Notes: a model not told the origin generated them from the sequence alone. Counted from the stretch's first letter, positions 17,407 to 20,838 are shown. The stretch: 64,000 nucleotides of DNA from Frankiales bacterium (GCA_025465465.1 JAODND010000007.1:55102-119101); one strand, 5' to 3'. A program made the numbers and translations.

Positions 17407-18462
17407 TCAGCGTGCTGTGAGCAGGGCGTTGTAGAGCGTGAGCCCTGGCCCGAAGGCCATGGCCACCACAGGTTGCCCCGGCTCCGGGGGGTCGGCGGCA
17501 AGCAGCCGCTGCAGGACCAGCAGCACGGTGGCTGACGAGCAGTTGCCCACCTCGCGCAGCGTGTCGTAGGAGGCCTCGACCGCCGCTTCGGGCAGCGCGA
17601 GCTGCTCCGCGACGACCTCCACGATCCGGCGGCCGCCCGGGTGGATCGCCCACCGACCGACGTCGGTGGTCCTCAGACCGTGTCGGTCGAGCAGCGTGTC
17701 GATGACCGGTGCGGCGTGCCGAGCCAGCACCCCGGGGACCTTTGGCGACAGGCCCATGCGGAAGCCCAGATCCGTGACGTCCCAGGTCATGTGGTCCAGC
17801 GTCGTCGTGTCGGTGCGGGCCGTCACGTCGACGACATCAAGACCGGTGCGCGGGTCGGCCTCACCAGCGGGTACGACGACGACGGCCGCTGCGGCATCGG
17901 CAAACAGTGCGTGCGCGACCATCTGCTGCAGCTCGTCGGTCGCTGGCTGGATGTGCAGGCTCGTCAGCTCGACACAGAGCAGCACCGCCGGCTTGCCGCG
18001 CGCGACGACGTAGTCCGCGACGGCGCCCAGGCCCGGGATCGCGGCGTAGCAGCCCATGTGCCCGATGTGCAGCCGCAGCACGTCGGGGCTCATCCCGAGG
18101 TCGCGTGCCAGCAGGATGTCGAGGCCGGGTGTGGCGTATCCGGTGCACGACACGACGGCCAGCATGCCGATGTCCTCGGCGGCGACGCCCGCGTCGGCGA
18201 GCGCCTTTGCCACGGCCTCGTGGCCCAGGGGCAGCGCCTCCTCGACGAACCGGCGCATCCGGGCGCCCGTGCCCCAGCCGGAGACGTCCTCGACCCGCGG
18301 GTCGACCACCGCGTGCCGGGTGTCGATGCCGGCGCTGCGCCAGACCTTCTCCGCCGTTGCGTTCCCGCCGTAGTGCTGGGCGAAGAACCCGTCCCACACC
18401 TCGGAGTGGTCCATCGCGGGGGGCAACGCCGCCCCGTGTCCGACGATCCTGGCCGTCACCAT
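17407..18462 (-). CDS. type III polyketide synthase
   Basis: Cys-His-Asn triad contexts VVSCTGYATPG, WAIHPGGRRI, GNCSSATV; ATG at 18462. Confidence 0.85.
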   Translation of the reverse strand: MVTARIVGHGAALPPAMDHSEVWDGFFAQHYGGNATAEKVWRSAGIDTRHAVVDPRVEDVSGWGTGARMRRFVEEALPLGHEAVAKALADAGVAAEDIGMLAVVSCTGYATPGLDILLARDLGMSPDVLRLHIGHMGCYAAIPGLGAVADYVVARGKPAVLLCVELTSLHIQPATDELQQMVAHALFADAAAAVVVVPAGEADPRTGLDVVDVTARTDTTTLDHMTWDVTDLGFRMGLSPKVPGVLARHAAPVIDTLLDRHGLRTTDVGRWAIHPGGRRIVEVVAEQLALPEAAVEASYDTLREVGNCSSATVLLVLQRLLAADPPEPGQPVVAMAFGPGLTLYNALLTAR

Positions 18463-19601
18463 CGCTGTCCTTCCGCGTCGGGATCGAGACCGAGTGCGGC
18501 ATACCCCAGCCAGTCGGAGCACACGTCGCTCGTCGCGGGCTGGAGCGCGCCACACCGCGCGTCCCGATAGATGCGCTCGAGGGCTGAGCCTCGCCTCGTG
18601 GCAGACGTACCGCAGGCCTCGAGCAGCGACGACGCGACCTCGGACGCCGTGTCGCCGGCGAGCAGCTTGGCGCGCCAGACCCACCTGTTCGTCTCGGGAG
18701 TGCCGGGGGCTTCCGTCACCGCCCGGGCCATCGCCCGGACCACCTCCCGGGCGGCACTGACCTGCGCATCGGCCCGACCGAGGCGACTGCGCACCAGGGG
18801 CAGGCGTGACAGTCCGCGCTCGCGGACGTGCTCGACAGCAGCGTCCAGCGCCGCTTGGGCCACTCCGACGTAGACGGGGGCGTAGGACGCGACGAGCCAC
18901 TGCGGCATCACCTGCGCGAGCAGCAGCGCGAGTCCCTCGACCTGTCCCAGCAGCGCCGACTCGGGGACGGTCGCGTCCAGCTCGATGTCGTGGCTGACCG
19001 TGGCACGCATGCCGAGGGAGTCCCAGGCGGGGATCACCCGGACGCCCTCGCCGGCCGGCACGAGGAACTGGCTGACGTGCTCGCCTCGCCGGGCCGCCAC
19101 GAGGTAGCCGTCGGCGTGCCCGGCGCCGGAGCAGAACGTCTTCAGTCCCCTGATCCGCCAGCCACCGTCGACAGGGGCGTACTCCGTCGTGAGCTGCGAC
19201 AGCCGGGATCCGGCGCCCCGTTCGCTCATGGCCACGGCGTAGTGCTTGCCCGCGACCGCACCGCGCAGCACCTCGTCGCGCGCGTCGAAGAAGGACTCCG
19301 GCACGCCGAGGGTCCGCGCGAGGTCCTCGTCGGTGAGCGCCAGCGCGCCGGTGACGGAGGCGTGCATGTTGAACAGCAGCGCGGTGGCACCGCTGCCCTG
19401 CGCGAGCGCCATCGCGACCTCGGCGTAGTCGCTGAAGCTCGCGCCCGACCCTCCCAGCCGCTCCGGCACCATCAGGCCCAGCAGGCCGGTGCGACGCAGG
19501 TCGGCGAAGTCCTGCGCCGGGAAGGTGCCGTCGCGGTCGTGCTCGGCGGCGCGGGCGGCGAGCGCGGGCGCCAGCTCCAGGGCTGTCCCCACCGCGCTCA
19601 T
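18456..19601 (-). CDS. acyl-CoA dehydrogenase-fold flavoprotein (possibly a monooxygenase)
   Basis: ACAD-like N/middle/C domains (ERIYRDAR). The usual YEGT catalytic-Glu segment reads LQPATS instead. Confidence 0.8.
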   Translation of the reverse strand: MSAVGTALELAPALAARAAEHDRDGTFPAQDFADLRRTGLLGLMVPERLGGSGASFSDYAEVAMALAQGSGATALLFNMHASVTGALALTDEDLARTLGVPESFFDARDEVLRGAVAGKHYAVAMSERGAGSRLSQLTTEYAPVDGGWRIRGLKTFCSGAGHADGYLVAARRGEHVSQFLVPAGEGVRVIPAWDSLGMRATVSHDIELDATVPESALLGQVEGLALLLAQVMPQWLVASYAPVYVGVAQAALDAAVEHVRERGLSRLPLVRSRLGRADAQVSAAREVVRAMARAVTEAPGTPETNRWVWRAKLLAGDTASEVASSLLEACGTSATRRGSALERIYRDARCGALQPATSDVCSDWLGYAALGLDPDAEGQRW

Positions 19602-20299
19602 GCCTTGATCCCGAAGCCCTGGAACAGGCCGGCCGTCGACCTGGTCGGGAGCATGCGGACGTCCTCCTTGTTGCCGAGCAGCCAGCGAACGTAGTCCGTG
19701 GCGGAGGGTCGCAGGCCCTGCAGGCGCAGCGCTACACCGTGACGCGAGGCGGTGGTCACAAGCTCGCGCCGATCGACGAACATCGCGGGGTCGTGCAGTC
19801 GCGGTGGTGGGCCGGCCGGCAGCCGCTCAGCCACCGTCACCGAGGAGAAGCGTCCCCACCACGTGCGAGCGATGGTGTCGAGGACCAGCGTGCCGCCACT
19901 CCTCAGGACGCGGCAGGCCTCGGCGACGACCGCGGCAGGGTCTCTCACGTGCTCGAGCACCTCCCCCGCCACGACCACGTCGAAGGCCTCGTCGGCGAAG
20001 GGCAGTCGGCCGGCGTCGCCCTGCACCGCGACGACTCCGTGCTGCTTCGCCACCTGCAGGCCGGAGTGCTGAAGGTCGACCCCGACATGCGTGAAGCGCC
20101 CGGTGTGCGGGGCGAGAAGGCCGCCGCCGCAGGCGATGTCCAGCAGTCGGCCGCCACCGGGAGGGAGGTGCACGGCGCGCGCAGCGGCGATCCAGTGCAG
20201 CATCGCGAACGCACCGCGGGGCTCCCACCACTGCGCTGCGAGGTCGTCGTACTGCCGTGGGTCGTTGCGGTCCCTGACCGGTGCCTGCTCCACTCTCAC
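19598..20299 (-). CDS. UbiG-like class I SAM-dependent methyltransferase
   Basis: WWEPRGAF..LH and LLDIACGGGLL motif I; GTG at 20299 (GTGA overlap with the idi stop); ATGA overlap with the ACAD start. Confidence 0.8.
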   Translation of the reverse strand: MRVEQAPVRDRNDPRQYDDLAAQWWEPRGAFAMLHWIAAARAVHLPPGGGRLLDIACGGGLLAPHTGRFTHVGVDLQHSGLQVAKQHGVVAVQGDAGRLPFADEAFDVVVAGEVLEHVRDPAAVVAEACRVLRSGGTLVLDTIARTWWGRFSSVTVAERLPAGPPPRLHDPAMFVDRRELVTTASRHGVALRLQGLRPSATDYVRWLLGNKEDVRMLPTRSTAGLFQGFGIKA

Positions 20300-20838
20300 C
20301 CTGCCCACTGTGGATGGCCGGCGGCGCGCGCGCACTCGAGGGCCTGGGCGAGCCACGGGGTGAACGCTGCTGGTCGGTCCCGGAGCTCCTCGTCCAGCTC
20401 GGCGGGGGTGAGCCAGCGAACGGCCTCGACCTCGGTCGGATCGGGGGCGAAGCGGGTGCCCGTGGGGACATAGCCGACCAGCACGGTGTCGTGCTCGTGC
20501 TCGACCAGGCCGGTCAGCACATCCTCGGCGCGGTAGGTGAACGCGCCGACGACCTCCAGGTCGACGGTCACGCCGAGTTCCTGCTGAGTCCGGCGGACGG
20601 CTTGGTCGACGAGCTCGCCCGCTGCCGAGGGATGGCTGCAGCACGCGTTGGTCCACAGGCCAGCGAAGTGGTACTTGGTGGTCGCCCGGCGTTGCAGCAG
20701 CACGCGGGTGTCGTCGTAGAGCAGCACCGAGAACGCCTCGTGCAGATGACCCGGCGGCTCGTGGGCCGACTGCTTGTCCATGCTGCCCGCGGCGTCGCCG
20801 TCCGTGCCGCGCAGGAGGACGTGACCGTCGGCGGTCAC
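20296..20838 (-). CDS. idi: isopentenyl-diphosphate delta-isomerase type 1 (Nudix)
   Basis: HLHEAFSVLLYD...LLQRRATTKYHFAGLWTNACCSHP matches the type 1 IDI signature. Confidence 0.85.
   Translation of the reverse strand: MTADGHVLLRGTDGDAAGSMDKQSAHEPPGHLHEAFSVLLYDDTRVLLQRRATTKYHFAGLWTNACCSHPSAAGELVDQAVRRTQQELGVTVDLEVVGAFTYRAEDVLTGLVEHEHDTVLVGYVPTGTRFAPDPTEVEAVRWLTPAELDEELRDRPAAFTPWLAQALECARAAGHPQWAG

Follow-up and report, generated by a model that had tools for sequence, protein, structure and literature searches.

The operon described here lies at positions 17407-20838 of a 64,000-nucleotide stretch of DNA from a Frankiales bacterium (GCA_025465465.1 JAODND010000007.1:55102-119101), referred to as the window, and its closest described relatives are the agq genes of Actinoplanes missouriensis and the losA locus of Micromonospora endolithica. 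The agq products are alkyl-O-dihydrogeranyl-methoxyhydroquinones, according to later papers that cite the original study (Awakawa et al. 2011, ChemBioChem 12:439, via PMC7587189, PMC10896814, PMC7692728, PMC9967187). The losA locus encodes DisA, RadA, a hypothetical protein, a UbiA prenyltransferase, a methyltransferase, an acyl-CoA dehydrogenase and a type III polyketide synthase (PKS), beyond which lie two hypothetical proteins and then CarD, IspD and IspF (PMC7587189, Table 1). LosA by itself, when expressed, yields alkylresorcinols (PMC7587189, section 2.3); LosA alone was activated in the loseolamycin study, the tailored native product being outside its scope (PMC7587189). In A. missouriensis, a UbiA gene and a methyltransferase-acyl-CoA dehydrogenase (ACAD)-PKS-DUF6023 gene string likewise lie between radA/disA and carD-ispD-ispF.

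In the window, the genes for a type-1 isopentenyl-diphosphate delta-isomerase (idi), a class-I S-adenosylmethionine (SAM)-dependent methyltransferase, an ACAD-fold flavoprotein and a type III PKS form four minus-strand open reading frames (ORFs), running from 20838 to 17407, with successive overlaps of 4, 4 and 7 nt. An earlier interpretation of the DNA, made without database searches (the sequence-only reading), had described this layout and proposed an srs/agq-like operon for an alkylresorcinol/alkylquinone lipid. ORFs, translations and direct reading of the sequence agree on the four genes and their junctions, and the proposed pathway type is borne out by the identification of three of the enzymes as orthologues of AgqC, AgqB and AgqA. 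The explanation that we favour, with a probability of roughly 0.78, is that the operon encodes an agq/los-type phenolic-lipid pathway, with idi feeding prenylation by an unlinked enzyme. The pathway assignment apart from the idi and prenylation step is, taken by itself, very likely.

The three core enzymes

The PKS gene (17407-18462, minus strand) encodes a protein of 351 amino acids with the Chal_sti_synt_N and Chal_sti_synt_C domains, which we assign as the orthologue of AgqA and LosA, an alkylresorcinol synthase. It shares 58% identity over its full length with the PKS of the A. missouriensis agq locus, is 59% identical to the PKS of two Micromonospora loci (L065 and L068) and is placed by its tree position inside the agq/los family; its Cys138-His274-Asn307 triad is invariant across 20 homologues. 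The closest solved structure is Mycobacterium tuberculosis Pks11 (PDB 4jao, 182 bits, full-length match), and the protein resembles the structures of the long-chain-primed Pks11 and Pks18 more closely than that of RppA (1u0m, 109 bits). The sequence-only reading had set against its own proposal a PKS of the tetrahydroxynaphthalene (THN) synthase type with neighbours that are not co-conserved. A THN synthase was rejected, given the scores of RppA and Pks11 and the 58% identity to the AgqA orthologue, and the methyltransferase and hydroxylase are co-conserved with the PKS. An identity as DpgA was rejected as well, the DpgA model scoring 193 bits against a cutoff of 425.

The ACAD-fold gene (18456-19601, minus strand) encodes 381 amino acids and is assigned as an ACAD-fold flavin monooxygenase, the orthologue of AgqB (alkylresorcinol hydroxylase). 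The assignment draws on 69% identity over 365 amino acids to P0155, a protein named by NCBI 'alkylresorcinol hydroxylase [Actinoplanes missouriensis 431]', which was reached by a protein search from the ACAD-fold gene of Actinoplanes philippinensis. The flavoprotein carries all three Pfam ACAD domains, and among solved structures it comes nearest to ACAD-type-2 proteins and to the nitrososynthases KijD3, ORF36 and DnmZ, which rank above true acyl-CoA dehydrogenases. Against the NCBIfam ACAD equivalogs it stays below every cutoff, its best score being 166 bits where 600 are required (Rv1679/FadE16 family). Acyl-CoA dehydrogenases have a YEG motif with the catalytic glutamate base; in the flavoprotein the C-terminal '...RDARCGALQPATSD' occupies this place, the motif region reading LQPATS, and the canonical catalytic-Glu motif thus appears to have been replaced.

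The methyltransferase gene (19598-20299, minus strand) encodes a class-I SAM-dependent O-methyltransferase of 233 amino acids (Pfam Methyltransf_11, E 2.4e-21), the orthologue of AgqC, with 51% identity over 228 amino acids to the methyltransferase of the A. missouriensis agq locus. It had been described as UbiG-like, which stands as far as affinity goes, with TIGR01983 its closest curated NCBIfam family and E. coli UbiG (4kdc) its closest structure, but does not extend to membership, the score of 94.6 bits lying just below the UbiG cutoff of 102.95. Upstream DNA of at least 3.5 kb was available for 65 related loci, and in 60 of these a methyltransferase gene stands directly upstream of the PKS or hydroxylase gene. 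Since all three proteins are orthologous to the agq set, a UbiG-like methyltransferase together with an ACAD-fold flavoprotein is what agq loci normally use for tailoring; the pairing is the standard agq set and not a new combination.

Relatives provide a further view of the hydroxylase. In eight of the 65 loci a class-A phenol hydroxylase replaces the ACAD-fold gene, and six Pseudonocardia-type loci have no ACAD-fold gene and carry an MhpA-like class-A flavoprotein hydroxylase beside the cluster instead. Locus L085, which belongs to the window's own clade, encodes at 5929-8004 a 691-amino-acid fusion of an MhpA-like class-A phenol hydroxylase (N-terminal) and an AgqC-like methyltransferase (C-terminal). 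The fusion scores 465 bits with NF004829 (cutoff 390), shares 4 nt with the start of the PKS gene and takes the position of the ACAD-fold gene. Enzymes of two unrelated types can occupy the slot, and the presence of two unrelated oxygenase folds there points to ring hydroxylation and argues against tailoring of the acyl starter.

Distribution and chromosomal position of the module

A protein search with the PKS returned thousands of homologues, the best 120 of which are 65-87% identical and come mainly from soil metagenomes. A scan with one genome per species gave 80 loci from Frankiales/Mycobacteriales metagenome-assembled genomes (MAGs), Geodermatophilaceae, Pseudonocardia, Saccharopolyspora, Dactylosporangium, Micromonospora, Actinoplanes and one Streptomyces; the host of the window is itself a soil metagenome-assembled actinobacterium whose nearest relatives are Frankiales or Mycobacteriales MAGs. 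Searches by tblastn with the window proteins placed the methyltransferase gene immediately before the PKS gene in about 70 of these 80 loci and an ACAD-fold gene between the two in about 24. The methyltransferase-ACAD-PKS order is not a chance arrangement, because it recurs in 23 other loci. Counts over the 65 loci are 60 for the methyltransferase, 38 for UbiA, 23 for the ACAD-fold gene, 8 for a class-A hydroxylase dependent on flavin adenine dinucleotide (FAD) and 2 for idi. Clustering of neighbouring ORFs showed that the 38 UbiA genes, encoding AgqD-like membrane prenyltransferases, adjoin the methyltransferase gene divergently, and that the housekeeping genes clpC, mutY, disA, radA, carD, ispD, ispF and cysS surround many of the loci.

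A maximum-likelihood tree built from 88 PKS sequences places the window in a starred, well-supported clade of nine rows together with L001, L002 and L081-L086. All nine members are without an adjacent UbiA gene and without the carD context, whereas the neighbouring Frankiales clade has UbiA-methyltransferase-PKS beside carD, from which we infer that the module was relocated and its prenyltransferase neighbour lost.

UbiA and methyltransferase-(ACAD)-PKS were seen at one housekeeping site, running from radA/disA to carD-ispD-ispF, in Micromonosporaceae and many Frankiales-like MAGs (L087:2842-14185; L004-L021, L034, L041, L056-L068, L076 and L080). This site adjoins two genes of the methylerythritol phosphate (MEP) pathway, and the arrangement would fit an old, vertically inherited module better than a mobile island of secondary metabolism. 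Other layouts were also observed. In five MAG loci (L023, L025, L049, L051 and L078), the PKS gene (8001-9038 in each) follows clpC directly and by itself, no methyltransferase gene being adjacent, and an AgqD-like UbiA gene lies about 8 kb off, beyond mutY and radA/disA, so that the cluster is scattered. Geodermatophilaceae (L031-L033, L036, L043 and L066-L077) have methyltransferase-PKS only, with no UbiA and no hydroxylase gene nearby, and in about ten of their loci a NarL/LuxR-type response regulator gene comes directly next; such loci may yield just a simple O-methylated alkylresorcinol.

The idi gene and the search for pathway partners

The first gene of the operon, idi (20296-20838, minus strand), encodes a type-1 isopentenyl-diphosphate delta-isomerase of 180 amino acids with a NUDIX fold. 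It reaches two NCBIfam equivalogs, NF002995 with 159.9 bits (cutoff 127) and TIGR02150 with 117.2 bits (cutoff 105.8), and aligns end to end with the E. coli IDI structures (1i9a/1nfs). In this alignment the equivalents of His25, His32, Cys67, His69, Glu87, Glu114, Glu116 and Trp161 are kept, residues that include the catalytic Cys and Glu and the metal ligands of the enzyme. Judged by its sequence, the window idi is a genuine type-1 isopentenyl diphosphate (IPP) isomerase and catalytically intact.

A type-1 idi was also observed in L037, a Pseudonocardia MAG, at 9077-9622, about 30 nt past the PKS stop and on the same strand (NF002995, 216 bits); UbiA and a class-A hydroxylase are further members of this cluster. 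The L037 idi, 36% identical to that of the window and unrelated to it, is an independent recruitment to the pathway, which favours a real link between idi and the pathway. As a member of the cluster, idi is a lineage-specific addition and not a conserved component.

Among the window genes scanned there was no polyprenyl synthase and no other prenyltransferase, and a FAD_binding_3 hydroxylase query had no window match at E <= 1e-3 (best E 0.11). One apparent UbiA candidate was rejected. A plus-strand ORF at 19739-20473 that clustered with UbiA genes is a 244-codon antisense shadow inside the methyltransferase gene, conserved across relatives because the methyltransferase is conserved; its false clustering arose by chaining via long antisense ORFs in other loci, and in Geodermatophilaceae the same ORF cluster contains ribokinase-like and small membrane proteins.

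Proposed pathway

In the scheme that we propose, the PKS would extend a long-chain fatty-acyl starter with three malonyl-CoA to an alkylresorcinol, as has been shown for AgqA and LosA. The ACAD-fold protein would then act as a flavin-dependent ring hydroxylase, converting the resorcinol to a 6-alkyl-2-hydroxyhydroquinone, probably with reduced flavin from an unlinked reductase, and the UbiG-like methyltransferase would O-methylate the hydroxyl thus introduced, so that a 6-alkyl-2-methoxyhydroquinone or the corresponding quinone is formed. The next step in Actinoplanes and the majority of relatives is O-prenylation of this product by the divergently encoded UbiA-type AgqD. In the window's clade, the three-gene module would have left its UbiA neighbour and the ancestral radA/disA–carD–ispDF site, and in the window's sublineage an intact type-1 idi would have become translationally coupled to the front of the operon. 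That idi raises the supply of dimethylallyl diphosphate (DMAPP) for prenylation by a prenyltransferase encoded elsewhere is a tentative part of the scheme, to which we give slightly less than even odds.

Alternative explanations

Several results weigh against this explanation, in most cases against its prenylation step. An AgqD-like UbiA gene was not found in the 64-kb window by tblastn, nor by a profile of 26 AgqD-like sequences run at maximum sensitivity against all six window frames (best E 0.25), in agreement with the sequence-only reading, which had reported no UbiA-type prenyltransferase here; a flavin reductase partner was likewise absent among the window genes scanned. UbiA is missing beside the module throughout the window's clade, idi is present in two of the 65 related loci, and the 80 metagenome loci with the closest idi homologues (at most 49% identical) carry no PKS, methyltransferase, ACAD or UbiA gene beside idi. 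As to expression, the runs containing the stretch are soil-metagenome DNA only, with no RNA run. Prenylation may have been lost in the window's clade, and the linkage of idi to the module could be a local accident. The leading idi had earlier been taken as a hint of a prenylated product; with idi so poorly conserved, the hint does not stand on that gene and rests mainly on the UbiA/AgqD found in 38 of the 65 relatives.

The same core chemistry could accordingly end at an unprenylated alkyl-methoxyhydroquinone or quinone, functionally similar to the Srs and mycobacterial polyketide-quinone lipids, with idi as a passenger. We consider this a serious competitor, with a chance that falls somewhat short of one half; on this view idi would be an ordinary IPP isomerase that is co-transcribed before a relocated module and has no role in the pathway. 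No UbiA gene adjoins the module in any of the nine clade members, UbiA-less forms are common because the Geodermatophilaceae keep just methyltransferase-PKS, and the nearest idi homologues elsewhere are not linked to a PKS. Within the clade idi is confined to the window and its closest relative, L081 (PKS 87% identical), in which an idi 65% identical to that of the window also lies upstream of the module; L083, L086, L084 and L002 (PKS identity 73-86%) have unrelated genes upstream and no idi, and for all 80 loci of the species scan tblastn with the window proteins showed no idi upstream. However, idi shares a 4-nt GTGA overlap with the methyltransferase gene, which couples the two, the independent recruitment in the UbiA-carrying L037 argues that idi is useful to the pathway, and the majority of the family (38 of 65 loci) is linked to UbiA.

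Two further alternatives concern the core enzymes. The ACAD-fold protein could be a true acyl-CoA (or acyl-carrier-protein) dehydrogenase that tailors the fatty-acyl starter, for example by adding a double bond, with no ring hydroxylation; three out of three Pfam ACAD domains are present, the Rv1679/FadE16 family is the best NCBIfam match, though at 166 bits against the cutoff of 600, and several true ACAD structures score 70-84 bits. We nevertheless regard such a function as highly improbable, in view of the 69% identity to the annotated agq alkylresorcinol hydroxylase, the higher rank of ACAD-fold monooxygenases over true dehydrogenases among solved structures, the apparent replacement of the catalytic-Glu motif and the phenol hydroxylase that occupies the slot in relatives. 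It is also quite improbable that the PKS makes another scaffold, either a Pks11-like alkylpyrone or a THN-type aromatic, which the neighbouring enzymes would tailor. The closest solved structure is indeed that of the alkylpyrone-forming Pks11 (182 bits), and pyrone by-products are common among bacterial type III PKSs. However, identity to Pks11 is far below the 58% to the AgqA orthologue, and RppA reaches just 109 bits. Moreover, the syntenic orthologues AgqA and LosA yield alkylresorcinols (PMC7587189).

Gene starts, promoter region and flanking genes

At the first junction, read directly from the sequence, the idi TGA stop (20298-20296) and the methyltransferase GTG start (20299-20297) share the GTGA at 20296-20299; at the second, the methyltransferase stop and the ACAD ATG both lie within the ATGA at 19598-19601; at the third, the ACAD stop (18458-18456) and the PKS ATG (18462-18460) give the 7-nt overlap at 18456-18462. 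Mechanical ORFs extend farther upstream, to 18900 for the PKS and to 20656 for the methyltransferase; we favour the short starts because of the homologue alignments, in which AgqA residue 1 is aligned with PKS residue 2 and AgqC residue 6 with methyltransferase residue 11. A GTG at 20293 is an equally possible alternative start for the methyltransferase.

The presumed promoter region of the operon is the 250-bp non-coding gap between a DUF222/HNH gene and idi (20839-21089), the only gap in the gene string. A promoter and terminator scan of 17200-21200 found none, the consensus sigma-70 model used being weakly informative for an actinobacterium with 72% G+C (about 72% in the window). Upstream of idi on the same strand lie the DUF222/HNH-type gene (21090-22451) and then a P450 gene (22510-23658); downstream, an S15 peptidase gene converges on the PKS gene, with 3 nt between its end and the PKS stop. 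The P450 and DUF222/HNH genes were rejected as cluster members, since neither stands beside the module in related loci; in L023 a P450 match at 35% is found about 5 kb upstream of the PKS. The DUF222 gene of the window, of a selfish, HNH-endonuclease-associated type, is on the minus strand, flanked by the P450 gene and by the idi operon. In the L081 contig a DUF222-like gene is present too, but about 6 kb downstream, on the other side of the cluster. DUF222-like genes near the module are consistent with mobile DNA around a relocated module.

Significance and comparison with described systems

The analysis allows the core enzymes to be named as an alkylresorcinol synthase, an alkylresorcinol hydroxylase and a hydroxyhydroquinone O-methyltransferase, specific names that correct the generic 'acyl-CoA dehydrogenase' and 'chalcone synthase' labels usual in MAGs. 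Within Actinomycetota the agq/los module has a much broader distribution than would be guessed from the two cases studied so far, ranging over Frankiales-like MAGs, Geodermatophilaceae, Pseudonocardiaceae, Micromonosporaceae and some Streptomyces, with variable linkage to UbiA, and the version led by idi and lacking UbiA offers a small natural experiment on the dispensability of prenylation. A further-reaching proposal would join a split pathway, in which idi feeds an unlinked and possibly non-AgqD prenyltransferase, to a widespread and physiologically important lipid; the two together are unlikely. If true, agq-type prenyl-methoxyhydroquinones would be a widespread membrane redox or antioxidant lipid of Actinomycetota and not an occasional secondary metabolite, a reading whose basis is a vertically inherited family anchored between radA/disA and carD-ispD-ispF in many actinobacterial families.

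Among described systems, Pks11 resembles the window PKS in having the fold of a long-chain-acyl-primed bacterial type III PKS, but it is much more distant than AgqA, forms an alkylpyrone and has another gene neighbourhood. The srsABC genes of Streptomyces griseus and the mycobacterial polyketide-quinone operon share the general logic, in which a PKS-derived alkylresorcinol is converted by a methyltransferase and a flavoprotein hydroxylase to phenolic lipids of the alkyl(methoxy)quinone type. They do so with an ICMT-type membrane methyltransferase and a class-A (UbiH-like) hydroxylase, whereas the window has a soluble UbiG-like class-I methyltransferase (Methyltransf_11) and an ACAD-fold monooxygenase. 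The losA locus has the same combination of methyltransferase, acyl-CoA-dehydrogenase-like protein and type III PKS; it also includes UbiA, while the window is without UbiA and the carD/ispDF context and has idi. The points of interest are modest: the UbiA-less, idi-led architecture, together with the wide and apparently vertical spread of the module at a conserved chromosomal site. Unlike agqABCD, the window operon has no divergent UbiA gene (AgqD) and no DUF6023 gene past the PKS, lies off the radA/disA–carD-ispD-ispF site and is led by a type-1 idi, but it shares with agqABCD the methyltransferase-hydroxylase-PKS order, the overlapping junctions and the three enzymes themselves, at 51%, 69% and 58% identity, respectively.

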